NCBI GenBank assembly: GCA_000004695.1
Contig: CM000150.2
Coordinates: forward strand, 1,760,001-1,824,000
From: Dictyostelium discoideum
Lineage: Eukaryota
Reading direction: 5' to 3'
Length of the DNA stretch: 64,000 nucleotides
Shown here: positions 1,069-30,329 of the stretch, piece by piece
Layout of the letters: each line of letters begins with the position of its first letter
Position numbering within the stretch: position 1 is the stretch's first letter
Program-made: the position numbers and the translations under genes
The notes under the pieces: model-generated
What the model saw: only the letters and a program-made list of their open reading frames with translations
What the model was told of the DNA's origin: nothing
The model's database searches: none

Positions 1069-3956
<2,888 letters not shown>

Positions 3957-4264: not shown

Positions 4265-6742
<2,478 letters not shown>

Positions 6743-6761
6743 TTTTAATATTAAAATAAAA

Positions 6762-6797
<36 letters not shown>

Positions 6798-6830
6798 TAT
6801 TATTTGTAAATTTTATATCTCTTTTTTTTT

Positions 6831-8018
6831 TTAACAACCTTTAACACCACCACTAATTGGAACTTCACGACAAATACCAGATTTACATTGATAATTATAA
6901 TCACATGTAATTGGATTACCATCATTTGTTAATGGTATACATCTTGGAATACCATTTACCCAAGATATTAAATTATTTGATTGATCACAATGATCACATG
7001 AATCACCCGTAAAACCTTGAGCACAAATACAATGACTTTTATTTAAATTTGAATCAAATAAAATTTCATTTAAACCTGTATTAACATTAATTCTTGAAAT
7101 TTTACCATTTAATGAATAATAAATGAAATCATTATAATATTTAAAAGAAGTTGGTAAATCTGATAAAATAGTTTTCTTTGGTCCAAATGTATTTGATAAT
7201 GAAATTGAATATAATTTTTTATCAAATTGATTTGAATAATATAAATCACTTGTTGAAACGTCAAATTCTTTAATTGTATATGCTTTACTTTCATTATACA
7301 CCATTGGTAAATCACGAATATATCCACCATTACTTTTTGGACTTAAGCTACCTTTATAAATTACATTTGTACCATCATAAATATATAAATCACTACCGTC
7401 ATCATTACCACTGGTGGTGGCGGTGTTAATGCCATTTGATTTCATTTCAAAACATGGACCATTATATAAAGTTTCACCTAAATCATTATATTTACCAATT
7501 TCACCTTTAAATATTTTATTTGCATATGGCCAACATGTGTATTGAGTATTTGTAGATTGTTTGAAAATGAAATTACCAATTTGATTCCATGTTAATTCAT
7601 TTCCAATTGTATTATTTGTAAAGAATATATTACTTGTTGGACCTGCTATACGTCTTTCAATATCGATAACAATATTTTGTGATTTCGAATCAACCAATTG
7701 TAATAAACCAATAACTTTTGTATATGTTGTTTGACCAAATAATGTATTTTGTGATTTTAAATAATTACCATTTTCATTTACCTGGGGTTGAATTGGTACT
7801 GAAACTACTCTTGGTTCAAATTCATCACTATATTTAATTGTAAATAAAATTCTACCATTCTCTTTATCTATATCAATTCTTTGTCCACCATTCTCTAATA
7901 ATGTTGCATTATTTTTACATAATGTAAATGGTGAATTACCACATGACCCATTTGAATCACAAGATGATGTATATGAAATTATACCAATTAAAATTAGTAA
8001 TAATAATAATAATTTCAT
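6831..8018 (-). CDS. Secreted cysteine-rich protein with C-terminal EGF-like module (paralog A)
   Basis: A 395-aa ORF has an N-terminal signal peptide MKLLLLLLILIGIISYTSSC. The C-terminus reads CICAQGFTGDSCDHCD...ISWVNGIPRCIPL..DGNPITCDYNYQC, which is an EGF/laminin-EGF-like cysteine spacing. It is collinear with paralog B at 8454-9626. Confidence 0.65.
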   Translation of the reverse strand: MKLLLLLLILIGIISYTSSCDSNGSCGNSPFTLCKNNATLLENGGQRIDIDKENGRILFTIKYSDEFEPRVVSVPIQPQVNENGNYLKSQNTLFGQTTYTKVIGLLQLVDSKSQNIVIDIERRIAGPTSNIFFTNNTIGNELTWNQIGNFIFKQSTNTQYTCWPYANKIFKGEIGKYNDLGETLYNGPCFEMKSNGINTATTSGNDDGSDLYIYDGTNVIYKGSLSPKSNGGYIRDLPMVYNESKAYTIKEFDVSTSDLYYSNQFDKKLYSISLSNTFGPKKTILSDLPTSFKYYNDFIYYSLNGKISRINVNTGLNEILFDSNLNKSHCICAQGFTGDSCDHCDQSNNLISWVNGIPRCIPLTNDGNPITCDYNYQCKSGICREVPISGGVKGC

Positions 8019-8453
8019 TTTTTTTTTTTTTTAAAAAAAATATTATTATTAAAATTAACAAAATACTTTTTTTTTTTTTTTATTCATTTTATAGTTTTTT
8101 TTTTTTTTATTTCTTTTTTCATTTCATTCTTTTTTGTATACATATGAAATTATGTAAAAGTGTGTTGTATAAATTTGGAAAAATAAAATAAAAATAAAAA
8201 TAAAAAAAAAAAAAATAAAAAAAAGAAACACACCAGATTTAAAAATAAATTCCAGATTTAAAAAATTTCTTCAAAAAAAAAAAAAAAAAAAAAAAGTTGT
8301 AATTTTAATATTATTATTATTATTTTATATTTTATATTTTTTTATTTTTATATTTTTTATTGAATAGTTTATTATTATTATTAATTTTTTTATTTTTTAA
8401 AAAAAAAAAAATAAATAAATAATAATTTAAAATAAATATTTTTATTCTCTCTC

Positions 8454-9626
8454 TCAAGTTGAACAACCTTTATTACCACCAGATAAAACAATTTCTTTAC
8501 AAATTTTAACATTATATGGTGAACATTGATAATTAAAATCACAAGTTATTGGATTACCATCAGAAGCTAATGGAATACATCTTGGTATACCATTTACCCA
8601 ACTAATAATATTTTTTGAAGTATCACATTGATTACATGATGAACCAGTGAAACCTTGAGCACAAATACAATGACCAACAGTTGAAGATGAGTCAAATAAA
8701 ATTTGAGGTAAGTTATCACCATTGGTGGAAACTCTTACAATTTTACCACCTTGTTGATAATATAACCAATTATTATGATATTTAAAAAATGTTGGAATGA
8801 AACCAATATCTAATATAACTTTTTTTTGATTTGTTGAAGATATTAAAACTTGATAGATTTTATTATCAGATTTACTAGTGTAAAATATACGATTAGATGA
8901 ATCATCAACATCGAAAATACCCATATTTGAATCTTGGAAAATCATAGGTAAACTTGAGATAACTGCATGTGGACCGTTTAAATTACCATTACGAATTGAA
9001 CCATTACCGTCTTGGATCAATAATGAGCTTTGGTAAGCTCTAATTGCAACTACTACACCAGAATATAATTGGCTACCCAAATTATTGTATTCTCCAATTT
9101 TACCCTTATAAACACCATTGGTGTATGGCCAACAAGTCCATTGTATATTATTAATTTCATCAAATATGAAATTACCTGGTACTGTCCATGTTAATTCATT
9201 ACCAAATGTATTGTTTGAAAAGAAAATATTGGCTGTTGTACCAGCGATTCTTACACTTCTATTGATCACCATTGATTTTGAAATTGGTCCAACATATTGA
9301 ATTAATCCTTGAATGATTTGGTATGTTGATTGACCATATAATGTTGAATGACTAATTACGTCATTTCCATTACTACCATCAACTGGAATTGATACAACAC
9401 GTTTTTCAAATTCATCTGGATATTGAACTGTAAAAAATAATCTACCATGAACTTTATCAATATCAATTCTATTATCATATTGATCAATTACAGTTTTATT
9501 TGTTCTACATCTTGTATATGGAGTATTACCACATTGCCAATCATGTTCACAACTACAATTAATTAATAAAATTTTACATAATATTAAAATTGAAATTAAA
9601 ATTAAATTATTAATTTTCATTTTCAT
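8454..9626 (-). CDS. Secreted cysteine-rich protein with C-terminal EGF-like module (paralog B, tandem duplicate of 6831-8018)
   Basis: A 390-aa ORF with a signal peptide. It shares motifs with paralog A throughout (RIDIDK..GR.FFT..Y.DEFE.RVVS.P, NIFF.NNT.GNELTW, CICAQGFTG.SC.QCD, ISWVNGIPRCIPL, DGNPITCD.NYQC). Both copies are in the same orientation. Confidence 0.65.
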   Translation of the reverse strand: MKMKINNLILISILILCKILLINCSCEHDWQCGNTPYTRCRTNKTVIDQYDNRIDIDKVHGRLFFTVQYPDEFEKRVVSIPVDGSNGNDVISHSTLYGQSTYQIIQGLIQYVGPISKSMVINRSVRIAGTTANIFFSNNTFGNELTWTVPGNFIFDEINNIQWTCWPYTNGVYKGKIGEYNNLGSQLYSGVVVAIRAYQSSLLIQDGNGSIRNGNLNGPHAVISSLPMIFQDSNMGIFDVDDSSNRIFYTSKSDNKIYQVLISSTNQKKVILDIGFIPTFFKYHNNWLYYQQGGKIVRVSTNGDNLPQILFDSSSTVGHCICAQGFTGSSCNQCDTSKNIISWVNGIPRCIPLASDGNPITCDFNYQCSPYNVKICKEIVLSGGNKGCST

Positions 9627-9656
9627 TTTTTTTTTAATTTTTTTTTTTAATTTATA

Positions 9657-9687
<31 letters not shown>

Positions 9688-11284
9688 TTTTTTTTAAATA
9701 AATAAAAAGATTAATAAATATTTTATAAATGAATATTTTAAATTAAATTATGAGAATAAATTTTTTTTTTTTTTTACTCTTTTATAGTTAATTTAAAATA
9801 TTTTTTATATATTATATTTTTTTATTTAAAAAATTAAAAATTTATAAAAAAAAAAAAAATTAATCATTTAAAAAAAATGAATAAATTAACAATAGATTGT
9901 TGTGGGGTTAGTATATTTGTGTCAAAATATAAAAATTAAAATACTCACTAATTGGTGGTTAAAAAAAAAAAAAAAAAAAAAAACCAATTCACCGATTACA
10001 CACTTTTACATTCACATTAATTTTAAAGTTTATGATCTAAAAAAAATTACAATTTATCCAAAAAAAGAAATCATTTTAATTTTATAAATTTTTTTTGTTG
10101 TATATGAATCGCCATCAATTTCTAAAATGTTTTTTACACCATAATAAATTTTATATATTTATTTTATTTATTTATTTATTTTTTAATTTATTTATTTATT
10201 TTTTTTTATTTTTAATAAAAACAATGTTTTTTATCATACAAAATATAAGCTTTTATTATTATCCATTGAGTAAAAAAAAAAAAAAAAAAAAATTTATAAT
10301 AAATATAAAAATAAATAATAATTAAAAAAAAAAAAAAAAAATAATTAAATGGTAATAAAAAATATTTCAATTATTTTTAATTAACACATTCAAATTGAAA
10401 TTATATGAGTTTGTGTTTATAGTCTATGGTTTACTTAAAGTTTTATTTGATTCAACTTCAACTAATGGTAAAAGAATTTGTGATCAATTTTTCACTGGAT
10501 AATCAATAAATCAAAGTGATACTTTAAAAATAATGTAATAAAATTAAAATTAAAATTAAAAAAAAAAATTAAAAAAAGGAAATAAAAACTAATTTTTTTA
10601 TAAAAATAATATTTAATTTAATTTAGAACCCAATAGAATAGAATAGAAAACATTTTGGTATATCAATAGACAAACCAATAATATTTTGATGGTGTGAAAT
10701 ATTGCTCACAAATTCAATTTCCTATTACAATAATTTCAAAATAATCAAATTTTTTTTTTTTTTTTTATTTATTTAAAAAATTAACACCTTTTACCAATGT
10801 AATAAATTTTTTTTTTAAAATAATTTTTATATTGGGTTTTTAATTGATTGTAAATAGAAAAAAAAATAATTAATGATGTGTTTTTTTTTTTTCTATTCAT
10901 TAATTTTATCATTTTTTTATTTTCCCTTTATCTTTATTTTAAAACAACTGAATAATACTTTTTTTTTTTTTTTGTTAAACAATAAAAAAAAAAAAAAAAA
11001 AAGTATTATTAAAATATAACAAAAAAATAAAAAAAGTATTACTCAGTTGCGAACAATAAAAAAAAAAAAAAAAAATTTAATAAAAAACAAATTTCAAACC
11101 AATTTTAAAATAAAAATAATAATTAATAAATAATTAATAAATAATAAATAAATAATAAATAATTAATAAAAAATAAATGAAAAATAAAAATAAATAATAA
11201 AAAAATAAATAAATAAATAAATAATATAATTATTTATTATCTTTTTAATTTTCTTTTAATTTTTTAATTTTTATTTTAATTAAT

Positions 11285-12395
11285 TTAATAAGAATTTTTA
11301 TGAAGATGTGGTGTATTATAATATTGTAAAGCTTCAGCATAATTTGAAGAATGTTTTGAATCAATTACTTCACAAGCTTCTAAATACTTTTCAATATATT
11401 TCTTATGTAATGGAAAAGTATTTTTATTTGTAATAGCTATTTGAAATCCATCATAATAAGTACGTGCTAATGGCATAATTCCAGATGCATATTTTTCGCC
11501 CATTTCAATTAATTCATCAACTTTTTTTAATGATTCTCTAATATCATCCTCTGTACGAATTGGTAATGTAAAAATTAATTCATCCAATTCATGACCTTTT
11601 TGAATTGAATCAATGATTTCTTTATTTTTACAAATACAACTACTATCACAATTAATATCCCATTTTGGTCTAATAACAGATTCTCTAACATCTCTAACCT
11701 CTTTACTTGATGAAAAATCATTATAAAAATAATATTGAATTGAAATCTCTTCACCTTCTTGAATATCTTTAATTGCTACCAATATAAATGAATTTAAATC
11801 TGGTATAAATTTATTTGTTGCATTATTTCTACAATCATGATTAACTCTTGCTAATCTAATACCTAAATTATCACCACCTTCTTTTGTAAAAAATGAATTT
11901 AAATCCCATCTGTTATTTTTCATAAAAAAAAAAATAATAATTAGTAACTTCCAACCCCCCCATATTTTTCACACATAAAAAAAAAAAAGTCAAATTTAAA
12001 ATTAAAAAGCATGGGTGTGGGGAGTGGGAAATTTTTAAAAATATATTTAATTACTTTTCTTGTAATGTGCCACCATGTGGCATTAAAGAATTTATAAATT
12101 CAAATGGTGTTTCTTTAATAGTTCTATAACCTCTATCAACCATAATTTTTGTATGTTTTGGTAATAATCTTTTTGCAAATACACCTAAACCTTTACCTTC
12201 AGTTTCTTTGACTTCCCAATCAATATCTTCTTCACCAATATTATCTTTACACCAAATTTTATGTGATTGTCCTTTACTTGTCCAATCACTAACTTGACAT
12301 TCTCTTGAACAATATGTTCTACGCATACATCCTGCACATTTTTTAATTTCATCTCCTTCAATACTTTTAAGGCAATATGCACAATGTCTTGTCAT
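11285..12395 (-). CDS. MYND zinc-finger plus SET-domain protein (SMYD-like lysine methyltransferase). Two exons, approximately 12395-12055 and 11909-11285
   Basis: Exon 1 contains the zf-MYND motif C-x2-C...C-x2-C...C-x3-C (MTRHCAYCLK...KCAGCMRRTYCSRECQVSDWTSKGQSHKIWC) and then the SET N-motif EGKGLGVFA. Exon 2 contains the SET core RVNHDCRNNA (the NHSC motif) and EEISIQYY (the ELxxxY motif). The donor is GTAATT and the acceptor AACAG, with phases matching. Confidence 0.7.
12010..12029. promoter_or_regulatory. G-box-like GC-rich island (catGGGTGTGGGGAGTGGGaa) within the intron of the MYND+SET gene. A C7 run lies nearby at 11951-11976
   Basis: This is an isolated G/GT-rich 20-mer in DNA that is otherwise more than 85% A+T. 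It resembles the G-box and CA-rich elements bound by Dictyostelium GBF. Confidence 0.3.
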
Positions 12396-12639
12396 TTTTT
12401 TTTTTTTTTTTTGTTTCACAATATTTTTTTCGTTTGGAAAAATAAAAAGTGGATTAAAAAAAAAAAAAAAAAAAATAAAAATAAAAATAAAAATAAAAAA
12501 AAAAAAAAAAAAAAAAAATGACAAAAACGAAAATGAAAGATTTTTTTTTTTTTTTTTTTTTTTTATTTTTTTTTTTAATTTTGATTGGTCGCTTTTATCT
12601 CTTTCAAAATTTCATGATCTTTTTGTAGTCATTTTTTTT

Positions 12640-12717
12640 AATTTTATTTTATTTTATTTTATTTTATTTTATTTTATTTTATTTTATTTTATTTTATTTT
12701 ATTTTATTTTATTTATT
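12640..12717. repeat. (ATTTT)n pentanucleotide microsatellite of about 15 units, upstream of the SMYD-like gene
   Basis: Direct reading of the sequence. Confidence 0.9.
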
Positions 12718-13069
12718 TTGGAAAAATTTATGGGTCCCATAAAAAATTAAAAAAAAACAAAAATATTTTAGTTTTTATATTTATTTTTTAAGTGAAACAA
12801 TTTCTTAAAATATGATAAAAACTATTAAAAAATAAGAAATTGAGGAATTTTATTAATTTATATTTCTTATTTCTTTTCTTCTTGTGTTAGTATTTCCGAT
12901 TCTTCAGGTTCATCGCATTGTGTGACATCAACTGGTTTTAAATGAATATTACCAATGATATTTCTTATTTCTTTTCTTCAGATTCATCTCTTTTCTTCAG
13001 AGTACCTGGTGAAAGTGGAAAAAACGCGAACTTTTTTTGTATCGATAACGGATTTTGGAAAAAAAAACG

Positions 13070-13072
<3 letters not shown>

Positions 13073-13100
<28 letters not shown>

Positions 13101-13412
13101 GAATTGGATAACGCAATTATTATTTGCTTCTCCTTGAGATGCTAGATCTCATTTTATTTTTTTTTTTTTTTTACAGGGTCTTTTTGATTAAAACATCTTT
13201 TTTGTCCAAACTTTTTTCTAAATCTTTTTTTATTTTATCGTCTGGTTCGTGATTGATGTTTATGACGTATTTGAATTGTTTTTTTTTTAATTGAGTTTTA
13301 TCCACAATTTCGCTTATTTTTTGTAGGCATTTGTGTTGCTTAATATTTGTGGTGTTGTTTGTGATTTTCATTTTATTTTCTTTCTATCTTTTTTATTTTT
13401 CTGATTAACTTG

Positions 13413-13472
<60 letters not shown>

Positions 13473-14452
13473 TTATAGAAAGTACTGAGTGAATTATTGT
13501 ATTTTTTGAGATGTTTAGGAAGTTCTATTGCGGGTGTTGATGATGATTTGTGACACCCCTTGTCCTGTTTTATCAATTGGTGCGTGGTGTGTTATTTTGT
13601 TTTTATATTGTTGATTTATTGAGTAAATTTTATTTGTTTTTATATTTGTTTCAGTTAGAAGTGCTGCGTCCAGCTTGTTGTTGTCTAAAACGGTGTTTAT
13701 TATGCTGGCAGATTGGATGGTGTTGGATCCTTGGACGTTCCAAACACCTATTCTTATTGTGTTTTTCTTTATAGTTTTATTTGGGGTAGATTTTTATCTA
13801 CCTTTTGAAGTTTCTGGTTTATTTTGTCTTCTAACTGATCTTTACTTTGTTCATTGTGTTGTTGGTCTTGTGTGTTTGTGGGGTTTTTTGATTTATTGAT
13901 TTGTTTTAGAATTTCCTTGTTGAAGTTGTCTATATCTTCATCCATTTTTGTTTTTATGCTTTTTTGTCCATATTCACCCAATTTTGGTTTGACTGGTGTT
14001 TTGTTGGTCTTGTTTGTTTTGTCTTGTTGTTTCTTTTTTGGTGTGTTTAACAATTTACTTGGTGAATCGATAATTTTCGATGGTGTACCATAGGTTGGGC
14101 TGAAACTCATGATATGTTTTATTGGAGAGGAGAAGAACCATTGATTTGAAGGGATTGAAAGTGGGAATTCTATTTTTCTTATTGCATCAGTGTTTGGGCT
14201 GGTGAAGTCGAAGATATCATTTGCCTCTCTAAGTTTTTCTTCCGTTGTTAGTCCCTTTGTTTCGCCGTGTTGTTTTATTGGTGTATTGTATGGAGATGGT
14301 GGTTCGATAGGTTTTTCTGATTTTGTTTTAATTTCTTGATTGTTTATCGATTGTGTATTGATCTCATTCTCTATTCTTGTTAGTTCATCTACGTTTTCTA
14401 GTGATGCTTCTATTACCTTTTGAGCTGTATCATCTAGGGCCATAAATGTTTA
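13073..14452 (-). mobile_element. TRE5-A-like non-LTR retrotransposon, copy 1. It is 5'-truncated and its 5' side abuts the plus-strand element
   Basis: A 28-nt oligo(A) tail is seen as a T-run at 13073-13100. It is followed by the shared C-module terminus gaattggataacgcaattattatttgcttctccttga, then a B-module-like block carrying the start of the MKITNNTTNIK... ORF, an internal oligo(A), and an ORF1-like segment at 13769-14443. The element is collinear and nearly identical with copy 2 at 30333-31700. Confidence 0.6.
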
Positions 14453-14578
14453 TGTGGAGAATTTATACATATAATAAATAAATCACTGTTATATCTTCAC
14501 CGCCACATTCATTCCTCTTAATTTTACCCTTTTTTTGCTCATTAAAGCAAGGGCTATCGTCCTATATACTTTTCAACA

Positions 14579-15787
14579 ATGGCTGATGATCACTCAACTG
14601 AATTACAGTTAAATCATACAGATAACAACACGACCAATACAAATAATACCTCCACAACCTCAACAACAAAAAATAAAAGTGCAAAAATCGACACACCTAA
14701 AAAACAAACCCCAACAAACCAACTCTCACTAAACAAAGGACTTGATAATCAATTAGATATCATTGCACCTCCATCAATCACAAGACCACTCTCTTTCTTA
14801 GAAAAAAACAATAACACCATCAACATTAAGTGTTACTTTAATCAACCACACATCCGTGAAGAATTAACCTCAAAAGATGACACAAGAATTCAACAAATTC
14901 ACAAAAACATTCACAAACTCTTCGAAGATATACTGTCGCCATCAGCATTCAAAATAATTGGTGCAACTGCCTTCGTAAATTGCAACGTTGATAAATTAAC
15001 TTCAATAATCAACCTTCAAAACCAACTTGCACTAAATATCGACAAACTCAACTATAGATTCGATATATCATCAAATGATTATGCAATCATTAAAACATTC
15101 ATTAAAACGTACTCACCCAAACATGCAAACGATGCAATTACAAACAACCTCACTAAATTCACCAGTTGTACATCAATTGAATCATTTACTGTCACATACT
15201 CATATGCTGTTGCGTTTAAAAGCTACATTATAACATATCATCTAATTGATCACACACACAACATTATTGATCAAAAGATCGAACAACCATCTGGTATCAC
15301 AAGATATATCAAAGCTGCAACACGTAGTGTCACTAAACACAAAATTCAACATGCAAAAAATGCAGATATGGCAACAACTATAAAAAATGCCATCACAAAC
15401 CCAAACATGAACAAAAACAATCAACCACCAAAAAACAACATTAACACCCCACCAATCAACGAAATTGCAAATTCCAATCGCAATAATAACTCACTTCAAA
15501 ATAGTGGTTCAAAAGCTATACTAAATGAATCACTTGATATTAACAATCAATCCCAAAACAATAATGAAATTTCACACAAAAGTGATTCTTCAAATAATAA
15601 TAACGGGAAAAACTCTTTATCAATGAGCAATCCAACCGATCCAACAATTGTACCACAAAAACCTCTACAATCTCAACCAAACAAACCAAGTGCACCAACT
15701 CCAAATACAATAAATACAAGAAGAAGCAGCAATGCCCTGACTACACAACCAGTCAATACTGGTGCTGCCAAACCTAGTAAGGTATGA
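14579..15787 (+). CDS. Retrotransposon ORF1 (402 aa), S/T/N-rich nucleic-acid-binding-type protein
   Basis: An intact ORF that starts at ATG 14579 and ends at a TGA overlapping the ORF2 ATG. Confidence 0.7.
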   Translation: MADDHSTELQLNHTDNNTTNTNNTSTTSTTKNKSAKIDTPKKQTPTNQLSLNKGLDNQLDIIAPPSITRPLSFLEKNNNTINIKCYFNQPHIREELTSKDDTRIQQIHKNIHKLFEDILSPSAFKIIGATAFVNCNVDKLTSIINLQNQLALNIDKLNYRFDISSNDYAIIKTFIKTYSPKHANDAITNNLTKFTSCTSIESFTVTYSYAVAFKSYIITYHLIDHTHNIIDQKIEQPSGITRYIKAATRSVTKHKIQHAKNADMATTIKNAITNPNMNKNNQPPKNNINTPPINEIANSNRNNNSLQNSGSKAILNESLDINNQSQNNNEISHKSDSSNNNNGKNSLSMSNPTDPTIVPQKPLQSQPNKPSAPTPNTINTRRSSNALTTQPVNTGAAKPSKV

Positions 15788-18700
15788 GCTCAAAAATCAA
15801 CTTTATAACATGGAATTGTAGAGGATTCACTGAAAACCCAAACAATCAACACAATTCCTACCAAAAAGCTGTTGACACACTACAACTACTTATATCAAAA
15901 CTTCCACCTCGTCCAACAATCTCAATACTCACTGAACTCAATTCATCACCATTACAACTTAAACATGATTTTCCCGATCACATCATCTCTGTCACCAAAC
16001 GAGGAAATGGTGTAATCATCATTAACCATAACCCAAACACACTCAAACTCAAACACATATCAACAATTGATGGTAGAGCTATTTTAGCAGACGTTATATT
16101 TCCAAATCAATTACCAATTGGTATTCTTGGAATTTACGCACCAGCATCAAATAATACCATCAAAAAGAATTCATATGCAACTTCACTACAAACACTTCTC
16201 CACAACCACTCAACAAACCCAATACCAAACCAATCCCAACATGTATCTATTATCGCAGGAGATTTCAACTGTATCCACAACGACAATTCACTATTAGATG
16301 ATATTATCCAATCCTACACATACCAACACCATCTAATTGATCAAGGTGAATTTAAAAACACTCCAACTCATACACATGGCAACAGATTAGATAGAATATA
16401 TACTCAATACAATAGAATAGACCCTGAAAATATATATACACAAGTCCACCAAATTCCATCTTCATTATCAGATCATAATCCAATATCAACAACAATTTCT
16501 TCACCTTTTCAAATAAATAAACATAAGAAAAGATGGATATTATCACCTGGTACTGCAAATGACCATGAAGCAATCAATATTATCAATCATTTAATAACTA
16601 ATCACAATAACACATCAATCAATCAATTTACAAACTGGTCAAAAGTAAAATCAAAAATTATAAAAACTCTAAAAAACTATCAATATAACAAAGACAAACA
16701 AACTCAACGTGCAAAACAAATACTATTAGAAAAAGCAGCAAAATTCAAACATCTTGAAGAACAATGCATCGCTGAATACAATATTATATGTAACAAAAAC
16801 AAACTACATCAAAACCACACAAACATATTAAAAAAACATATAAATGGAGAAATACCTAGCAAGTATCTATCAGCAATACTAAACAAAAGATCAAAAGATG
16901 CAAAAATTGAATCAATCCAATATGGTAACATCATTACATCCGACCCCGACCAAATTGAAAATGCGTTTGTTGAATTCTACACAAATCTATATAGCTTACA
17001 AATATGTTGTCCAATTACTCACCAGCTCATGCCAAACACATGGCCCATCATAAAAAATGAATATTGGAATGGTTTAGACTCACCATTTATACAAGATGAA
17101 GTTGAAGCTGCAATTAAAACCTGTAACCCCAACAAATCACCCGGTCCAGATGGCGTTACAAATGCATTCTACATTAATCATTTAAACCAAGTTAAACCAA
17201 TTCTCACTACATTATTCAACGATATACTAGAAAATCCTCACCACATCACAACAGAATTCACAGAAGGTCTTATACACACAATATACAAGAAAGGCAACCC
17301 CTTACTCATATCAAATCGTCGTCCCATTACACTTCTAAACACTGATTACAAGATCCTCTCAAAAGTAATCAATGCACGTCTTCTGAGAATACTTCCTTTC
17401 ATCATCAACAACAACCAAACTGGTTTCGTACCCCACAGATTCATCATAGACAACATCATCAACATCAATGAATTAATCAACTACCTCAAATCTAAAAACC
17501 TCCCTGGTATCATCACACTATTTGACTTCTTTAAAGCATTTGATTCTATCTCTCACGATAGCATTAAAAGAACATTAATTCATATTGGTATACCAATAAA
17601 ATTAATAAATTTAATCCACAAGCTATTATCTGACTCACAAGCAAAAATTTCAATTAATGGTAAAACGACCAGAAAATTCGATATTAAAAGAGGTGTAAAA
17701 CAAGGTGACCCAATCTCAGCCACTTTATTTGTAATTGTAATTGAAATATTAGCAAGAACAATAAATGCAGACAATTCAATAATTGGATTACCAATTTCAC
17801 CCAATCCACAAATTAAAATCAAATTTACCCAATTTGCAGACGACTCTACAACATACAACATCAACTACGAACAACAACAACAATCAATCAAACATTTCGA
17901 TAATTTCTGCGCTTCAACATCATCATCTTTAAATTTTGACAAAAGTGCAATAATAGAAATCAACCCCCACAAAATCACTGATAAACACATAATAAACAAC
18001 ATTCCACAATCAAAAAGAATTCCAATAACCAAAAAAGATCAATCAGAAAGAGTTCTTGGCTATTTCTTTAATCATAATGGTTTACATAGGAAATTACCAG
18101 AAACAATGAAAACACTGATTAAATCATTAGTGCTATGGAAAACTAGTGGCACAACATTAAAAACAAAAACAACCATCATAAACACCTACTCACTATCACC
18201 AATAACATATTTATCATACCTTGAAGAATTTACAAAAGATGAAGAAATTCAAATTAATAAATTAATCTCATGGTTTATGAATTCTCCCGCAAATTCTGAA
18301 TCACCAACTCTCGATACCAATTCCATTGAAAACAACACATCAACCATCCATTCACGTGCAAAAATACCTTTGATGTGTTATGATAGATCATTAAAACCAT
18401 TAAAAGAAGGAGGTTGGGGTATGTGGAATATCCAATTACGACAAGTTGCTCAAAAGATTTGGATATACAACAGATTTTTACAAATGCATAAATCTGCAAA
18501 CAATTCAATATACATGATAAGTTGGATGGATCAAATCATCAACAAATCAATCTCTTCTCCATACCTTATAAAAATAAAAAAAGAATGGGAAAACTATGCA
18601 ACTCAAATTGGACATCTAAAAGATAAAGTTCAAATCCTACAACCAATAATAACAAAAAACCAAACCTCTCAAACATTAAACACAAATAATATTTCACTAC

Positions 18701-19611
18701 CACCAACACTCAAAGAAATCTACTCGACAATACTAAACAATCACCTATGCAAATCAAAAGACTATATTGGCAAGAAATATTCAGATCTACTTCTTACTTC
18801 GCACCAACAATCAATACTTCTTTTATGGAAATACACATACGACCAACTTTTTGTCAAAATTCAAAAATTAAAAGATCCAAAAGGCCGAGATACAATGCAA
18901 AGATTCCATGCTAGATGTCTTCCGATTAATCATCTACACAACAAAGTTTGCCCCATTTGCAACAATGAAATGAATAATGATCCCTATGGTCATTTGTTTT
19001 TCAATTGTCAGCACACAATCAACTTCATTAACCACGACAAATTAAAATATTTTATATATAAAAATTGCAATGGAAACAAAAACTGGTCACTAACAAAAAA
19101 CCAAACAACAAAATTATACACACTCATCTATAAACCACAAACAAACAACAAAGCATTTAAACCAGATCCAACTATCAATATTAATTTTCATTTTGCAGAA
19201 AACGCACAATATAAAAAATACAGGTTCAACTGGAATTATATAAACACAAATCTTGATCTAGTCAGAACACATGCATATTGGAACATAATCTCATTAGTTA
19301 TTCACCAAATATGGATATGGTTATGCAAATCATTATTTGACATCAATATAACTCAATCAATTGATAATTGGAACAACCAAATAAACAACACAACACTAGA
19401 TTATGATATATTAAAATCAAAATGGCACAAGCTAATAAGATTGGAATATTCAAGAACTTTATCAAACTTTAACCAATACTCAATTAAAAACAACCTCACA
19501 AAAACTCAAAAAGAAACCCAATGGTCCGAAACCATCAAAAAATTTAAAAAAGAATGGAGCATAAACACTAATGAACCAATTCCAACAATTACACCACCAA
19601 TTAATTATTAA
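15784..19611 (+). CDS. Retrotransposon ORF2 (1275 aa): apurinic-endonuclease-like domain, reverse transcriptase, and C-terminal Cys/His zinc-binding domain
   Basis: The N-terminal ITWNCRGF...GDFN...DRIY block is an EEP/APE endonuclease. The RT motifs are ITLLNTDYKILSKVINARL, FDFFKAFDSISHD and QFADDSTTY (FADD box). The C-terminus has CPICNNEMNNDPYGHLFFNC. There is no internal stop. Confidence 0.8.
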   Translation: MSSKINFITWNCRGFTENPNNQHNSYQKAVDTLQLLISKLPPRPTISILTELNSSPLQLKHDFPDHIISVTKRGNGVIIINHNPNTLKLKHISTIDGRAILADVIFPNQLPIGILGIYAPASNNTIKKNSYATSLQTLLHNHSTNPIPNQSQHVSIIAGDFNCIHNDNSLLDDIIQSYTYQHHLIDQGEFKNTPTHTHGNRLDRIYTQYNRIDPENIYTQVHQIPSSLSDHNPISTTISSPFQINKHKKRWILSPGTANDHEAINIINHLITNHNNTSINQFTNWSKVKSKIIKTLKNYQYNKDKQTQRAKQILLEKAAKFKHLEEQCIAEYNIICNKNKLHQNHTNILKKHINGEIPSKYLSAILNKRSKDAKIESIQYGNIITSDPDQIENAFVEFYTNLYSLQICCPITHQLMPNTWPIIKNEYWNGLDSPFIQDEVEAAIKTCNPNKSPGPDGVTNAFYINHLNQVKPILTTLFNDILENPHHITTEFTEGLIHTIYKKGNPLLISNRRPITLLNTDYKILSKVINARLLRILPFIINNNQTGFVPHRFIIDNIININELINYLKSKNLPGIITLFDFFKAFDSISHDSIKRTLIHIGIPIKLINLIHKLLSDSQAKISINGKTTRKFDIKRGVKQGDPISATLFVIVIEILARTINADNSIIGLPISPNPQIKIKFTQFADDSTTYNINYEQQQQSIKHFDNFCASTSSSLNFDKSAIIEINPHKITDKHIINNIPQSKRIPITKKDQSERVLGYFFNHNGLHRKLPETMKTLIKSLVLWKTSGTTLKTKTTIINTYSLSPITYLSYLEEFTKDEEIQINKLISWFMNSPANSESPTLDTNSIENNTSTIHSRAKIPLMCYDRSLKPLKEGGWGMWNIQLRQVAQKIWIYNRFLQMHKSANNSIYMISWMDQIINKSISSPYLIKIKKEWENYATQIGHLKDKVQILQPIITKNQTSQTLNTNNISLPPTLKEIYSTILNNHLCKSKDYIGKKYSDLLLTSHQQSILLLWKYTYDQLFVKIQKLKDPKGRDTMQRFHARCLPINHLHNKVCPICNNEMNNDPYGHLFFNCQHTINFINHDKLKYFIYKNCNGNKNWSLTKNQTTKLYTLIYKPQTNNKAFKPDPTININFHFAENAQYKKYRFNWNYINTNLDLVRTHAYWNIISLVIHQIWIWLCKSLFDINITQSIDNWNNQINNTTLDYDILKSKWHKLIRLEYSRTLSNFNQYSIKNNLTKTQKETQWSETIKKFKKEWSINTNEPIPTITPPINY

Positions 19612-19835
19612 CTACCTAATCTAAAATAACATACTATTTTAAATTCACAAAAACTAAAAAACCTAAAATAAATAAATAAAAATAACATACTAATTGTATA
19701 CTACAATAGTTTATTTATATCAAAAAAAAAAAAAATTTTAGTATTACCAAAATACACCGCTTTTAGGTAAAAAAAAAAAAAAAGTATTACCAAAAGAATA
19801 AGTTAAAAAAAACCGAAAAAAACAAAGAAATAAAC

Positions 19836-22800
19836 GAGAATTTATACATATAATAAATAAATCACTGTTATATCTTCACCGCCACATTCATTCCTCTTAA
19901 TTTTACCCTATTTTTGCTCATTAAAGCAAGGGCTATCGTCCTATATACTTTTCAACAATGGCTGATGATCACTCAACTGAATTACAGTTATATCATACAG
20001 ATAACAACACAACCAATACAAATAATACCTCCACAACCTCAACAACAAAAAACAAAAGTGCAAAAATCGACACACCTAAAAAACAAACCCCAACAAACCA
20101 ACTCTCACTAAACAAAGGACTTGATAATCAATTAGATATCATTGCACCTCCATCAAATTCACAAAAACATTCACAAACTCTTCGAAGATATACTGTCGCC
20201 ATCAGCATTCAAAATAATTGGTGCAACTGCCTTCGTAAATTGCAACGTTGATAAATTAACTTCAATAATCAACCTTCAAAACCAACTTGCACTAAATATC
20301 GACAAACTCAACTATAGATTCGATATATCATCAAATGATTATGCAATCATTAAAACATTCATTAAAACGTACTCACCCAAACATGCAAACGATGCAATTA
20401 TAAACAACCTCACTAAATTCACCAGTTGTACATCAATTGAATCATTTACTGTCACATACTCATATGCTGTTGCGTTTAAAAGCTACATTATAACATATCA
20501 TCTAATTGATCACACACACAACATTGTTGATCAAAAGATCGAACAACCATCTGGTATCACAAGATATATCAAAGCTGCAACACGTAGTGTCACTAAACAC
20601 AAAATTCAACATGCAAAAAATGCAGATATGGCAACAACTATAAAAAATGCCATCACAAACCCAAACATGAACAAAAACAATCAACCACAAAAAAACAACA
20701 TTAACACCCCACCAATCAACGAAATTGCAAATTCCAATCGCAATAATAACCCACCTCAAAATATTGGTTCAAAAGCTACACAAAATGAATCACTTGATAT
20801 TAACAATCAATCCCAAAACAATAATGAAATTTCACACAAAAGTGATTCTTCAAATAATAATAACGGGAAAAACTCATTATCAATGAGCAATCCAACCGAT
20901 CCAACAATTGTACCACAAAAACCTCTACAATCTCAACCAAACAAACCAAGTGCACCAACTCCAAATCCAATAAATACAAGAAGAAGCAGCAATGCCCTGA
21001 CTACACAACCAGTCAATACTGGTGCTGCCAAACCTAGTAAGGTATGAGCTCAAAAATCAACTTTATAACATGGAATTGTAGAGGATTCACTGAAAACCCA
21101 AACAATCAACACAATTCCTACCAAAAAGCTGTTGACACACTACAACTACTTATATCAAAACTTCCACCTCGTCCAACAATCTCAATACTCACTGAACTCA
21201 ATTCATCACCATTACAACTTAAACATGATTTTCCCGATCACATCATCTCTGTCACCAAACGAGGAAATGGTGTAATCATCATTAACCATAACCCAAACAC
21301 ACTCAAACTCAAACACATATCAACAATTGATGGTAGAGCTATTTTAGCAGACGTTATATTTCCAAATCAATTACCAATTGGTATTCTTGGAATTTACGCA
21401 CCAGCATCAAATAATACCATCAAAAAGAATTCATATGCAACTTCACTACAAACACTTCTCCACAACCACTCAACAAACCCAATACCAAACCAATCCCAAC
21501 ATGTATCTATTATCGCAGGAGATTTCAACTGTATCCACAACGACAATTCACTATTAGATGATATTATCCAATCCTACACATACCAACACCATCTAATTGA
21601 TCAAGGTGAATTTAAAAACACTCCAACTCATACACATGGCAACAGATTAGATAGAATATACTCAATACAATAGAATAGACCCTGAAAATATATATACACA
21701 AGTCCACCAAATTCCATCTTCATTATCAGATCATAATCCAATATCAACAACAATTTCTTCACCTTTTCAAATAAATAAACATAAGAAAAGATGGATATTA
21801 TCACCTGGTACTGCAAATGACCATGAAGCAATCAATATTATCAATCATTTAATTACTAATCACAATAACACATCAATCAATCAATTTACAAACTGGTCAA
21901 AAGTAAATCAAAAATTATTAAAACTCTAAAAAACTATCAATATAACAAAGACAAACAAACTCAACGTGCAAAACAAATACTATTAAAAAAAGCAGCAAAA
22001 TTCAAACATCTTGAAGAACAATGCATCGCTGAATACAATATTATATGTAACAAAAACAAATTACATCAAATCCACACAAACATATTAAAAAAACATATAA
22101 ATGGAGAAATACCTAGCAAGTATCTATCAGCAATACTAAACAAAAGATCAAAAGATGCAAAAATTGAATCAATCCAATATGGTAACATCATTACATCCGA
22201 CCCCGACCAAATTGAAAATGCGTTTGTTGAATTCTACACAAATCTATAAAGCTTACAAATATGTTGTCCAATTACTCACCAGCTCATGCTAAACACATGG
22301 CCCATCATAAAAAATGAATATTGGAATGGTTTAGACTCACCATTTATACAAGATGAAGCTGCAATTAAAACCTGTAACCCCAACAAATCACCCGGTCCAG
22401 ATGGCGTTACAAATGCATTCTACATTAATCATTTAAACCAAGTTAAACCAATTCTCACTACATTATTCAACGATATACTAGAAAATCCTCACCACATCAC
22501 AACAGAATTCACCGAAGGTCTTATACACACAATATACAAGAAAGGCAACCCCTTACTCATATCAAATCGTCGTCCCATTACACTTCTAAACACTGATTAC
22601 AAGATCCTCTCAAAAGTAATCAATGCACGTCTTCTGAGAATACTTCCTTTCATCATCAACAACAACCAAACTGGTTTCGTACCCCACAGATTCATCATAG
22701 ACAACATCATCAACATCAATGAATTAATCAACTACCTCAAATCTAAAAACCTCCCTGGTATCATCACACTATTTGACTTCTTCAAAGCATTTGATTCTAT

Positions 22801-24122
22801 CTCTCACGATAGTATTAAAAGAACATTAATTCATATTGGTATACCAATAAAATTAATAAATTTAATCCACAAGCTATTATCTGACCCACAAGCAAAAATT
22901 TCAATTAATGGTAAAACGACCAGAAAATTCGATATTAAAAGAGGTGTAAAACAAGGTGACCCAATCTCAGCCACTTTATTTGTAATTGTAATTGAAATAT
23001 TAGCAAGAACAATAAATGCAGACAATACAATAATTGGATTACCAATTTCACCCAATCCACAAATTAAAATCAAAAGATGAAGAAATTCAAATTAATAAAT
23101 TAATCTCATGGTTTATGAATTCTCCCGCAAATTCTGAATCACCAACTCTCAATACCAATTCCTTTGAAAACAACACATCAACCATCCATTCACGTGCAAA
23201 AATACCTTTGATTTGTTATGATAGATCATTAAAACCATTAAAAGAAGGTGGTTGGGGTATGTGGAATATACAATTACGACAAGTTGCTCAAAAGATTTGG
23301 ATATACAACAGATTTTTACAAATGCATAAATCTGCAAACAATTCAATATACATGATAAGTTGGATGGATCAAATCATCAACAAATCAATCTCTTCTCCAT
23401 ACCTTATAAAAATCAAAAAAGAATGGGAAAACTATGCAACTCAAATTGGACATCTAAAAGATAAAGTTCAAACCCTACAACCAATATTAATAAAAAACCA
23501 AACCTCTCAAACATTAACCACAAATAATATTTCACTACCACCAACACTCAAAGAAATCTACTCGACAATACTCAACAATCATCAATGTAAATCAAAAGAC
23601 TATATTGGCAAGAAATATTCAGATCTACTTCTTACTTCGCACCAACAATCAATACAACTATTATGGAAATACACATACGACCAACTATTTGTCAAAATTC
23701 AAAAGCTAAAAGATCCAAAAGGCCGTGATACAATGCAAAGATTCCATGCTAGATGTCTTCCGATTAATCATCTACACAACAAAGTTTGCCCCATTTGCAA
23801 CAATGAAATGAATAATGATCCCTATGGTCATTTGTTTTTCAATTGTCAGCACACAATCAACTTCATAAACCACGACAAATTAAAAAATTTTATATATAAA
23901 AATTGCAATGGAAACATCAAAAAATTTAAAAAAGAATGGAGCATAAACACAAATGAACCAATTCCAACAATTACACCACCAATTAATTATTAATTACCTA
24001 ATCTAAAATAACATACCATTTTAAATTCACAAAAACTAAAAAACCTAAAATAAATAAATAAAAATAACATACTAATTGTATACTACAATAGTTTATTTAT
24101 ATCAAAAAAAAAAAAAAAAAAA
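19836..24122 (+). mobile_element. Degenerate second copy of the TRE3-like element, in tandem and same orientation, with multiple deletions and frameshifts
   Basis: It has the same 5' end (gagaatttatacatataataaataaatcactg...) and 3' end plus oligo(A) as copy 1. ORF1 carries an out-of-frame deletion of about 117 bp near 20160. ORF2 is broken by a 2-bp deletion near 21660, a 1-bp deletion near 21906, and deletions of about 400 bp (near 23070) and about 480 bp (near 23920). Confidence 0.7.
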
Positions 24123-24154
24123 CTATATTTTTAGATTTGTATGAATTTTGTTTA

Positions 24155-25080
24155 TTATTTAAGTAAAGTTTTAAGATTTTTTGGGAGTAGATTATTCGTT
24201 AATTGTAAATTTGGACAATCCAAAGTTAGAGTTGTGAGAGAATTTGGGAATATTTCATCTGGTAAATTATGTTCCTGTGTCTGGATATCTAATGATGTTA
24301 AATTTTTAAAACCAGAAAAAGGATTTATCAGTGTTGAATCCAAGGGAATATAAATTGAAAGTGTTTGAATTGATTTTGGTAATTGTTGATAATCAGAGCA
24401 ACTATTCAATGTTAAACTTGTAATATTTGGTAGGAAGATATCCTTTAAGTTATTGGAAGTTTCATGGACATCAAAAACTAAAGTTTTAATTGATATTGGT
24501 AATGAGTTTGATTCAATTTTAGAACCTCTAGAACCAAGGAATTCCAATGATGTAACATTATGTGGAATCATTCCTCTTTTAATTTTTTGATCGAAAGAAG
24601 AATCAAATGTTAATGAAGTTGTGCCACCAGGTATTGATTTTGAATTTGAATCTCTAACTGTTGAATTTGGAATTAATTTAATTGAATTGTTTTTTGAATT
24701 AAAATGGTAGTTGAGGTCTGTAATTGATTTTGGTATTGATCCATTCAAAATGGTACCTTTATTGATTCAATAGTTCTTGGTAACCATGGTATACCATTTG
24801 AATCACTTAATGCTTGATTAAATCTACTACCAAAATTAATGGTTTTAAGAGTATTACCAATGATGTTACAAGTTAATGCTTGGTCAAACTTTGAAAATGA
24901 AATGGATAACAATGTATCAGGTATCCAATGATCTCCTAATATAAAATTTGAGCAATCAATATATTTTTTCTACACCCGATGGAATTGGATATTTATCTTT
25001 TGTTAAAACTATCTCACTCTTTAAGTTGATTTTACTTAAATAATTTCTATATTTATATGTCAATAATTCATTTAATGATT
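24155..25080 (-). pseudogene. FNIP-repeat protein gene, frame-disrupted copy
   Basis: Repeats of the type LP.SL..L.FG..FNQ.I..G.IP..VTSLEF are present. The N-terminal region beyond the ORF at 24749-25080 is collinear with 27960-28340 but is interrupted by in-frame stops. Confidence 0.45.
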
Positions 25081-25639
25081 TGGGCAATACAATATTTATC
25101 ATAATTATTATTATATAATCTAAGATAAAATAAAATTGTTTTCCTTAAAATCATATTTCCCCAAACTTTTTTAAATAATATATAATTATAATCAATATAT
25201 TGATTTAATTCTTTATTAATTTGGTCCAATGGTAATGATTTTAAAATTAATTGATTATTATTATTAATGATTTGATGATTTAAATTATTTTTAATAATTA
25301 TTTGAATTGAACAATCGAATGCTATTCTTTTATTTCTATTGATAGTTATATTATTATTATTATCTTATTACTATTATTATTATTATCTGCTATTGAATGA
25401 TTATATATATTGTATTGAATAGAATCATTTTTATTAGTGAAAGAATTTTTTATAAATACACCCCAAAATATTAATATGTAAATGATTATTTATTATTTGA
25501 AATTGTTGATAATTTAATCCTTTTAAATCATTTAAATAATTTTGTTCTTTTTCTTCTTCTTGTCTATATATAAAAATAATTAATAATAGTAAAGATGAGT
25601 GTGTTAACGAATGAATGAATGAGTGAGTGAATGAATGAA

Positions 25640-25712
<73 letters not shown>

Positions 25713-26056
25713 TAATAAAAATAGGGTATAATGAATATTAATAAATAATTAAACTATTATTATAACATACATTGATATTTTTCTTTTTTTTTGAATGTTT
25801 CCGATATTGTTTTTATCATTGATATTATTACAATATTCTTGTAATTGATTAAATGTTATATTTAAATTATTAATTGATAATATTAATAAACAATATAAAA
25901 ATTCTTCACTTTCATTTTTATTATTATTATTATTATTGTTATAATTATTAATTAAATAATAATAAATGATATTATCCATTTTTAAAAAAAAAAAAAATAA
26001 AAAAATAAATAAAAAACACCAAAAGTTTTGTCTGAAAAAAAAAAAAAAAAAAAAAA

Positions 26057-26353
26057 TTAAACATTAAATGTTTTAAAATCAGAGAAACCACCCACTGTTA
26101 AATTTGTAATGCTTGGTGGCAATATATCCTTTAGGTTATTGATAGATTTATGTTTAAGAAGAACCAAAGTTTTAATTGAGATTGGTAATGAATTTGCTTC
26201 AATAAGACAACCTTCATAATTTTTGAACTCTAATGATGTAACATTATGTGGAATCATTCCTTTTTTAATTGTTTGGTTGAAATGATAACCAAATGTTAAT
26301 GAAGTTGTACCACCAGGTATTGATTTTGAATTTGACATGAAGAAAAAGAACAA
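26057..26353 (-). pseudogene. FNIP-repeat gene fragment
   Basis: A 98-aa ORF made of FNIP-type repeats (SIPGGTTSLTFGYHFNQTIKKGMIPHNVTSLEF...). It is isolated, and its flanks duplicate the 5' flank of the neighbouring FNIP genes. Confidence 0.4.
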
Positions 26354-26416
26354 ACCTTTTTAAATGATTTAAAAGGATTAAATTATCAACAATTTCAAAT
26401 AATAATAATAATAATA

Positions 26417-26447
<31 letters not shown>

Positions 26448-27068
26448 TCAATTAATTTTAAAATCGTTACCATTTGATCAAATTAATAAAATTAAATTAA
26501 ATAAAGAATTAAATCAATATATTGATTATAATTATATATTATTTAAAAAAGTTTGGGGAAATATAGTTATTAGGAAAATAATTTTATTTCATCTTAGATT
26601 ATATAATATTAATAATTGTACTATTGAATTTACATTAAATGGTTTATCAACATATAAATATAGAAATTATTTAAGTAAAATCATATTAGAATGAGAAGAT
26701 AGTGAGATAGTTTTAACAAAAGATAAATATCCAATTTCATCAAGTGTATAGTTAATTAATTAAATAATAATAAATGATATTATCCATTTTTCTGAAAAAT
26801 TTTAAAAAAAAAATAAAATAAAAAATAAAAAATAAAAAAACAAAAAACGTTATTTTGACAAAATTTTTGGGAAAATAAAAAAATTGTGAAGATTTATAGT
26901 ATTTTTTTTTTTTTTTTCAACAATGATTTAATTTTATATTTATGGATTTAATAAAGATAAATATAACACTAAAAAATACACAAAATGACATAATGATGAT
27001 GATTTAAATCAAACATTGAGTATTACATGTTTGATAAAGAAATCTAAACTAATAGAGTTTATACAATT

Positions 27069-29776: not shown

Positions 29777-29844
<68 letters not shown>

Positions 29845-30140: not shown

Positions 30141-30329
30141 GGTTGGCTCCCAGGTTTTTTTTTTTTTGTCTTTTTATATGAAAAATGAAATAATCAAAAA
30201 AAGAGATTGTTGTTTTTTGTTTTTTTCGATCTCAAATTAAGTAATAACCTTTTTTTTGAATAGAATAACGCAATTTTTAGTTGCTTCTTCTTGAGATATC
30301 TCATTTTATTTTGAATAATTAATTAATGA

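Follow-up and report, generated by a model that had tools for sequence, protein, structure and literature searches.

A coding-intact TRE3 retrotransposon in the Dictyostelium discoideum AX4 chromosome 1 reference is a mosaic of two loci, most likely through mis-assembly

TRE3 elements are retrotransposons whose structure, targeting, and multiple intact copies have all been published. We analyze one such element, here called copy 1, in a 64,000-nucleotide stretch (the window) of chromosome 1 of Dictyostelium discoideum AX4, where the best protein matches are likewise to D. discoideum. It is an already described, tRNA-gene-targeting, LINE-like retrotransposon with intact genes, and it is no special master copy. 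Its sequence is a mosaic of two parents: copy 1 follows the element of one locus (locus A) to at least position 17337 and an element, B1, of a second locus (locus B) from position 17820 at the latest. Taken together, the data very probably describe a TRE3 element, most likely TRE3-B, whose copy 1 is an A/B1 hybrid most likely created by mis-assembly. An initial annotation, made from the letters alone, had correctly recognized the TRE3 family: the element is of the non-LTR type with intact open reading frames (ORFs) and catalytic residues, and it is accompanied by a decayed copy and by inverted TRE5-A elements. The same annotation had taken copy 1 for a single physical element, a view that an independent assembly does not bear out. 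The features are collected in Table 1.

Table 1. Features in and around the TRE3 copies (window coordinates)
Feature	Position	Strand	Basis or remark
5'-truncated TRE5-A, head-to-head with copy 1	13073-14451	-	98% identical to 30338-31705
5-nt filler (atgtg) between truncated TRE5-A and TRE3 5' end	14452-14456	.	
Copy 1, TRE3 (probably TRE3-B), 5279 bp, ORFs intact, two-copy mosaic	14457-19735	+	ORFs, domains, allele comparison
Segment identical to locus-A element (L006/L008)	14457-17337	+	24 differences from B1
ORF1, 402 aa	14579-15787	+	ORF translation
ORF2, 1275 aa: APE endonuclease, RT, CCHC	15784-19611	+	Pfam, motif check
Switch interval, 482 bp, parents indistinguishable, join inside	17338-17819	+	
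Segment identical to B1 (L001) except private cluster 18818/18819/18822	17820-19735	+	18 differences from locus A
3' oligo(A), 14 nt	19722-19735	+	
Downstream 17-bp target-site duplication of B1, ttttagtattaccaaaa	19736-19752	+	
3' stub of another poly(A) retroelement, tacaccgcttttaggt + A15	19753-19783	+	
Copy 2 (B2), decayed TRE3 including 5' extension	19785-24122	+	five frameshifting deletions
Downstream target-site duplication of copy 2, ctatatttttag	24123-24134	+	
TRE5-A with B-module duplication (30447-30667 = 32168-32388)	30338-32928	-	sequence comparison
Assembly gap, 100 N	32929-33028	.	
Copy 3, right-hand 2.47 kb of the locus-A element	33029-35508	+	100% match to L006

The coding capacity of copy 1 is complete. 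Full translation bears out the uninterrupted ORF1 and ORF2 of the initial annotation, and the ATG of ORF2 overlaps the stop codon of ORF1 (ATGA), placing ORF2 in the -1 frame. Pfam matched no family in ORF1; in ORF2 it found Exo_endo_phos (aa 8-231) and RVT_1 (aa 502-732). The full set of endonuclease and reverse transcriptase (RT) motifs is present, with FADD at aa 684-687, and a CX2CX10HX4C motif lies at aa 1056-1075, so that the APE, RT, and zinc domains proposed earlier are all in place and every catalytic residue checked is conserved. There are no LTRs, and the predicted 3' oligo(A) is likewise there, as is characteristic of TRE3; the tails of the other copies measure 13-26 A. ORF2 matches the TRE3 "pol" in the literature (AAD43057) at 1269 of 1275 residues (99.5% identity). 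From the youngest subfamily, copy 1 differs by 7 amino acids, 0 of them inside motifs, and its private nucleotide cluster produces Q1012L. Exact-product look-ups (the window ORF2, the 375-aa ORF of TRE5-A, the DDB_G0268608 model P0090, and P0001) matched no record.

Assignment to a subfamily draws on lengths, relative abundance, and one neighboring annotation, and these most likely indicate TRE3-B rather than TRE3-A. Elements of the TRE3-B type were reportedly described in D. discoideum by Szafranski and co-workers in 1999 and by Glöckner and co-workers in 2001. The 5279 bp of copy 1 equal the TRE3-B consensus length, for which Spaller et al. 2016 (Table 1) list 43 copies, 9 of them full-length and intact; for TRE3-A (Tdd-3), the same authors give a consensus of 5229 bp, 67 copies, and 13 intact. 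A second family in the genome (P0011, L009) has an ORF2 only 40% identical to ours and measures ~5257 bp including tails, which fits TRE3-A; this separate family and the length speak against TRE3-A as the subfamily of copy 1. DDB_G0291686 is annotated as "TRE3-B ORF2," and the consecutive ID DDB_G0291688, presumably that of an adjacent gene, belongs to the family of the window element. Searching the literature by GenBank accession or dictyBase gene ID yielded no papers.

Compared with known systems, the window element has the TRE3-B features of 5279 bp, two ORFs, the APE-RT-zinc finger order of ORF2, and an oligo(A) tail. It shows no family-level difference from TRE3-B, but the window sequence is a mosaic without the first 28-47 nt, a tRNA gene, or a target-site duplication (TSD). 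TRE3-A shares the architecture, the targeting downstream of tRNA genes, and a homologous ORF2, whereas the presumed TRE3-A copies have an unrelated 416-aa ORF1 and other 5' and 3' termini. Among solved structures, the best relatives of ORF2 are those of human L1 ORF2p (8c8j, E = 9e-43; 8sxt, E = 4e-42, matching aa 172-746), with which it shares APE, an RT carrying FADD, and a Cys-rich motif at the C-terminal end, the catalytic Asp/His residues and FADD being aligned. In contrast, identity to human LINE-1 is ~25-30%, ORF1 is unrelated to L1 ORF1p, and TRE3 targets tRNA genes whereas LINE-1 targets AT-rich consensus sites. TRE5-A (DRE), a non-LTR sister group that this genome also carries, lies inverted beside the TRE3 copies at two places; it integrates ~50 bp upstream of tRNA genes in opposite orientation, has modular A/B/C untranslated regions, and is the only TRE with experimentally shown mobility according to the literature. 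Pfam found no matches in the TRE5-A ORFs of the window.

The mosaic emerges from comparison with GCA_054883475.1, an independent long-read assembly in which the loci are labeled L001-L009; it probably represents another NC4-derived laboratory strain, presumably AX2-214. Over 15 kb, the window differs from it by 33 substitutions, all within TRE3 copies and 24 of them at 14542-17337. The locus-A element (L006) shows 0 differences from the window over 14457-17819 and 18 thereafter; the last site that discriminates against B1 is 17337, and the first that discriminates against locus A is 17820. A table of the copies against their consensus repeats the A-left/B1-right pattern. Polymorphism between strains was considered for the 27 assembly differences within copy 1 and rejected: they occur only in the repeats and, without exception, sort by parent. 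The amplification known from chromosome 1 of AX2 was likewise discarded as a cause of the assembly difference, its gene content (kinases, a formin) being mismatched.

The two halves of copy 1 occupy separate places in the long-read assembly. At locus A, the window sequences 5279-17819 and 33029-45417 run into each other through a single element: L008 is collinear with both stretches, with 0 substitutions in the 12.4-kb right flank, and L006 4189-8033 equals window 33029-36873 at 100%. The window sequence from ~17338 to 29612, the point up to which it was traced, sits at locus B, a distance of ~600 kb, where a tRNA-Lys gene precedes it. There, tRNA-Lys(UUU) lies 99 bp upstream of GAGAATTT of B1, two genes with products of 285 aa and 546 aa lie upstream in L001, the decayed copy 2 lies downstream of B1, and the insertions are surrounded by nested TSDs. 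The upstream TSD of B1 is absent from the window and present in L001 at 9812-9828; that of copy 2 occurs in L001 alone, at 9806-9817. A homology search of the newer assembly with an FNIP exon returned only a 66% paralogue. In the reference, gene model DDB_G0268608 on AX4 chromosome 1 runs from copy 1 into copy 2.

The right-hand side of the apparently displaced stretch ends at the assembly gap, into which tandem 199-bp A-module-like repeats (32466-32928) of TRE5-A extend. Copy 3, which follows (33029-35497/35508), aligns collinearly to the 3'-terminal 2.47 kb of copy 1 with 18 mismatches and 0 gaps, and its first 553 bases (33029-33581) duplicate 17267-17819 exactly before the two diverge. It had been described as the 3' part of an element; since the 100-N gap directly precedes it, its truncation is a contig end and not a truncated insertion, and the rest of the locus-A element lies across the gap.

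These observations bear on whether the hybrid could exist in AX4: TRE3 copies ~600 kb apart on chromosome 1 would have undergone gene conversion or ectopic homologous recombination, with the right part of locus B ending up in the locus-A element and the recombinant staying intact. We regard this as unlikely. One clean switch within a long identical stretch is what homologous recombination would leave, TRE3 repeats are documented in the literature at breakpoints of true duplications in laboratory stocks, and the compared assembly probably comes from a different laboratory strain. Yet A-left joined to B-right is the configuration of a deletion product, and A-right nevertheless follows past the gap; on the right, the boundary is that of a contig (100 N) and no sequence junction; the 553-base identical overlap past the gap, followed by divergence, is characteristic of an overlap that was missed; and the AX4 gene models retrieved include neither the 5' half of B1 nor its tRNA-Lys flank. 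The specific version in which the A5'/B1-3' mosaic records a recent ectopic TRE3-B recombination, with at least 15 kb moved and a coding-competent recombinant, is improbable.

An error could instead reside in the newer assembly, which would have collapsed a real segmental duplication while the reference is correct; this we consider very improbable. Short-read-polished Nanopore sequence may homogenize or collapse repeats, and the four identical copies described below may partly be of this kind. However, the assemblies agree segment by segment in their alleles, including variants 17033 and 18021 and 37 variants of B1, and because they match allele for allele, locus-specific variants included, polishing has left the identity of the copies intact. 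Moreover, reads of ~4 kb suffice to connect A-specific alleles with the unique junction on the left, and the reference is gapped at exactly the same point.

Mis-assembly of the Sanger reference, induced by the repeats, is thus our preferred reading. The left 2.9-3.4 kb of copy 1 would come from the locus-A element, whose right half would be copy 3 past the gap, and the right 1.9-2.4 kb from B1 at locus B, ~600 kb off; the two were most likely joined within the identical 482-bp stretch.

The ends of copy 1 differ from those of other family members. AAAAAACCGAAAAAACAAAGAAATAAAC, comprising at least 28 conserved nucleotides upstream of GAGAATTT, is present in copy 2 and in five other genomic copies. 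Since TSDs delimit these nucleotides, they are part of what was inserted. They are missing from copy 1 (at least 28, and up to 47 in L002, L004, L005, copy 2, and B1), contrary to the complete 5' leader once ascribed to it; in sequences of the L002-L005 type the 5' extension measures 42 nt. The junction between the truncated TRE5-A and TRE3 is present in both assemblies. There is no TSD around copy 1. The tacaccgcttttaggt + A15 stub found downstream of the B1 segment also sits 3' of the L004 copy. The arrangement had further been called a classic tRNA-gene-associated cluster, but the window contains a single tRNA gene, a tRNA-Arg at 348-421. Beside copy 1, Rfam and a B-box pattern search detected neither an isolated B box nor a hidden tRNA gene. 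Copy 1 has no tRNA gene in the same orientation ~14-230 bp upstream, the arrangement typical of TRE3; neither does its parent at locus A, in either assembly. Such a gene does precede the parent B1 in L001 (tRNA-Lys, 49-99 bp) and the copies in L002, L003, L005, and L007.

Copy 1 was also proposed as the candidate master copy, and it would then be a single bona fide full-length source flanked by one decayed and one 5'-truncated copy. The decay of copy 2 is as described: over 19836-24122 it is 97-99% identical to copy 1 and carries five frameshifting deletions (107, 409, and 449 bp, one of 2 bp, and one of 1 bp), the at least five disabling lesions expected, plus an in-frame 6-bp deletion. The intact ORFs of copy 1, its full set of catalytic residues, and only 7 amino-acid differences from the youngest subfamily, none in a motif, would suit a source element. 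Against this stand its mosaic origin and a form without the conserved 5' terminus, TSD, and tRNA gene. Both ORFs are intact in all eight of the copies examined, at least seven besides the window copy being intact, and the literature gives 9-13 intact copies per subfamily. At other loci, four copies of 5279 bp share one and the same sequence (100% identity), from which locus A departs by 2 nt and the window copy by 18 nt. Copy 1 is thus neither the closest copy nor the only intact one, and a master role is very unlikely.

For the family itself, the published literature suggests how copies would be mobilized. ORF1 would be encoded on an mRNA whose 5' UTR is short, and ORF2 would start in the -1 frame at the ATGA overlap. 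The APE endonuclease of ORF2 would nick the target, and the RT would copy the poly(A) RNA in place by target-primed reverse transcription. The product would be flanked by TSDs of 10-17 bp; its usual place would be 30-100 bp downstream of a co-oriented tRNA gene.

The biological news is small, and the practical value lies in caution about the reference. In the AX4 chromosome 1 sequence, ~15 kb around 17.3-33.0 kb of the window appears to belong elsewhere, and the reference presents a hybrid retrotransposon together with a gene model, DDB_G0268608, that spans two elements. "Unique" mapping of RNA-seq or small-RNA reads to copy 1, or a tagged TRE3 template built from it, would rely on what is probably a nonexistent sequence. 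An active TRE3-B is better sought among the four 100%-identical copies that the newer assembly places at different tRNA genes.

Copy 1, the full-length TRE3-like element proposed in the initial annotation as an intact and possibly active retrotransposon, does carry two uninterrupted reading frames on the plus strand. They overlap by the tetranucleotide ATGA, placing ORF2 in the -1 frame, in agreement with the TRE literature, where a -1 shift is needed for ORF2 translation. Pfam returned no family match for ORF1 and placed Exo_endo_phos (residues 8-231, E = 1e-12) and RVT_1 (502-732, E = 3e-31) in ORF2. The nearest solved structures are human LINE-1 ORF2p (8c8j, E = 9e-43; 8sxt, E = 4e-42), with which the RT motif-A Asp, FADD, and endonuclease D/H residues are in register. 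The full expected motif set is kept (WNCRG, ILTELN, AGDFN, RLDRI, SDHN, RPITLLN, FDFFKAFD, and QGDPIS), the FADD box (684-687) and CX2CX10HX4C (1056-1075) are intact, and the element ends in 14 A, so the anticipated endonuclease, reverse transcriptase, zinc domain, and 3' oligo(A) are all present. The AX4 chromosome-1 gene model DDB_G0268608 (protein P0090, 1660 aa, 15784-~21000) runs on from ORF2 of copy 1 into copy 2, which identifies the window as AX4 reference sequence. Besides the whole of ORF2, it takes in C-terminal residues of ORF1 and pieces of copy 2, an artefact spanning two elements.

Features of the window (positions within the 64,000 nt)
Feature	Positions	Strand	Description
ORF1 of copy 1	14579-15787	+	402 aa, uninterrupted
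ORF2 of copy 1	15784-19611	+	1275 aa, uninterrupted
Copy 2	19836-24122		97-99% identical to copy 1 (gapped self-comparison)
Copy 3	33029-35497		collinear with last 2.47 kb of copy 1; 18 mismatches, 0 gaps
Inverted TRE5-A neighbours	13073-14451 and 30338-32928	-	TRE5-A-defining B-module duplication (30447-30667 = 32168-32388); tandem 199-bp units at 5' end
Assembly gap	32929-33028		100 N
tRNA-Arg	348-421		sole tRNA gene within window
FNIP-repeat ORFs	24155-28400	-	3' of copy 2; several, diverged; 80-87% identical DNA paralogues
Tandem array	39338-41200		period 33 bp (~45 units); probably coding low-complexity repeat
Tandem array	62260-63375		period 102 bp (9 units); probably coding low-complexity repeat
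Tandem array	1177-2450		9-nt periodic repeats; probably coding low-complexity repeat

The nearest proteins are all from Dictyostelium discoideum, and ORF2 matches the deposited 'pol' AAD43057 at 1269 of 1275 residues. For two TRE3 subfamilies, published figures are available: TRE3-A (consensus 5229 bp, 67 copies, 13 full-length intact) and TRE3-B (5279 bp, 43 copies, 9 full-length intact; Spaller et al. 2016, PMC5006619, Table 1). Copy 1 is 5279 bp long. A second family in the genome, with an ORF2 just 40% identical, an unrelated 416-aa ORF1, a length of ~5257 bp including both A-runs, and more gene models (79 cluster members), fits TRE3-A. DDB_G0291686, 'TRE3-B ORF2' in dictyBase, has an ID consecutive with that of DDB_G0291688, a truncated member of the copy 1 family, and the two genes are presumably adjacent. 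Judged by length, second family, and neighbouring gene ID, copy 1 quite probably belongs to TRE3-B. Locus L009 (1-7306) holds two tandem copies of the other family (ORF1 416 aa; probably TRE3-A), 5293 bp apart with the target-site duplication (TSD) 'ataatgcat'; its surroundings include a pair of tRNA-Thr genes as well as fragments resembling the TRE5-A C-module.

The same loci were taken from an independent assembly, GCA_054883475.1, probably from the Nanopore and Illumina project PRJNA1300491 and its only NC4-derived strain, AX2-214, as near-zero divergence in unique sequence suggests. The key two lie on contig JBTAPE010000039.1. Locus B (L001, 2.57-2.59 Mb) reads tRNA-Lys(UUU), 99 bp, a full-length element (B1), a 100-bp spacer, copy 2, and FNIP-repeat genes; it differs from window 14457-29612 by one poly(A) indel and 33 substitutions, every one within TRE3 copies, 27 of them in copy 1 and 24 of those at 14542-17337. 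Locus A (3.18-3.20 Mb), ~600 kb away, reads truncated TRE5-A, filler 'atgtg', a single full-length element, and an 888-aa gene; it shows no substitutions against the element part of window 5279-17819, none over 12.4 kb against 33029-45417, and skips 17820-33028 wholly. Site by site, copy 1 equals A to at least 17337 and B1 from 17820 on. The stretch 17267-17819 repeats 33029-33581 base for base, with 18 differing sites beyond. Such a pattern is typical of contigs whose overlap was overlooked and which were then joined wrongly inside a repeat.

Mis-assembly of the reference beside the gap, a feature that the initial annotation did not mention, is thus the most probable cause. The proper continuation of the left contig would be the present copy 3, and the contig would instead have been extended into B1 reads through a 482-bp stretch without A/B1 differences. 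Copy 3, previously read as a 3' part of an element, begins directly after the gap, which separates it from TRE5-A A-module repeats; its truncation is a contig-end artefact. Within each segment the alleles of the two assemblies coincide, copy-specific variants included, and the disagreement concerns linkage alone; long reads resolve linkage better than AX4 Sanger reads of an assumed ~700 bp. A real AX4-specific recombination is an improbable source of the mosaic, even though genuine duplications in laboratory stocks have TRE3 repeats at some of their breakpoints (Bloomfield 2008). A private cluster in copy 1 (18818/18819/18822; 3 substitutions in 5 nt, CAACTA to CTTCTT, Q1012L) occurs neither in any other copy nor in the second assembly and could reflect an error in base calling. 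Copy 2 is as decayed as first described: relative to intact copies it has five frameshifting deletions (107, 409, 449, 2, and 1 bp) and an in-frame 6-bp deletion.

The complete 5' leader proposed for copy 1 is not supported. TSD-delimited copies start 38-47 nt 5' of GAGAATTT (TSDs: gattctagatag in L002, cgaagctcgg in L004, tttttacgaa in L005), and AAAAAACCGAAAAAACAAAGAAATAAAC, which six of the nine copies carry upstream of GAGAATTT, copy 2 and B1 among them, is missing at locus A and hence in copy 1, as is a TSD. In both assemblies copy 1 (from 14457) lies head-to-head with a 5'-truncated TRE5-A, separated by only the 5 nt 'atgtg', and the tRNA gene expected between them is missing; a local deletion would be the simplest reading. 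The proposed tRNA-gene-associated cluster stands at locus B, where the array follows tRNA-Lys, but the join has left this gene outside the window. Sequence 5' of the conserved terminus varies by copy (L001, 9829-9878; L002, L004, and L005, ~1332-1378; window 19785-19835), which suggests either that transcription begins in DNA flanking the source copy (5' transduction) or that 5' joining adds extra nucleotides; B1 starts with the B-box-like GGTTCAAATCCC. Nested TSDs at locus B, 'ctatatttttag' and 'ttttagtattaccaaaa', reflect repeated use of one target. A very short 3' stub, 'tacaccgcttttaggt' plus A-run, occurs at window 19753-19783 and beside an unrelated copy at L004 ~6670-6698; it comes from another poly(A) retroelement, its 3' end matches neither of the two TRE3 families described above, and its insertion target is that of the TRE3 copies.

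TRE3 copies display coding capacity, TSDs of 10-17 bp, poly(A) tails of varying length, and, in L003 and L007, 5' truncation. By analogy with the family literature, transcription would proceed from the 5' UTR, ORF2 would be made by reinitiation or frameshift at ATGA, APE nicking would precede target-primed reverse transcription, and targets would be chosen via the RNA polymerase III machinery at B or ex-B boxes; experimental proof of mobility concerns TRE5-A only.

The proposal that copy 1 is the candidate master copy is not supported: ORF1 and ORF2 have 402 and 1275 aa in all eight full-length sequences examined. Four copies at different sites on four contigs of GCA_054883475.1 (L002-L005) are 100% identical over 5279 bp; three of them have a called tRNA gene on the upstream side (one for Thr, one for Leu, and one that contains an intron). 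Such identity would imply very recent TRE3-B retrotransposition, with homogenisation by short-read polishing possible. Counted against this young group, the differences number 2 nt for locus A, 8 for L007 (its truncated 5' end set aside), 18 for the window mosaic, and 37 for B1. B1's differences are mainly synonymous (pN/pS 0.09 in ORF2, 0.22 in ORF1), and B1 therefore represents a separate lineage evolved under selection rather than a decayed copy. The seven ORF2 residues distinguishing the mosaic from the young group (L417P, K850N, L956I, P961T, Q988L, Q1012L, and Q1174H) all lie outside catalytic motifs. Biologically copy 1 is ordinary, an already known element from an established family, and the 'intact copy' seen in the window is most likely a chimera created by the assembly next to a gap. 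What it still offers is a warning about the reference sequence and a lead towards better candidates for active copies.
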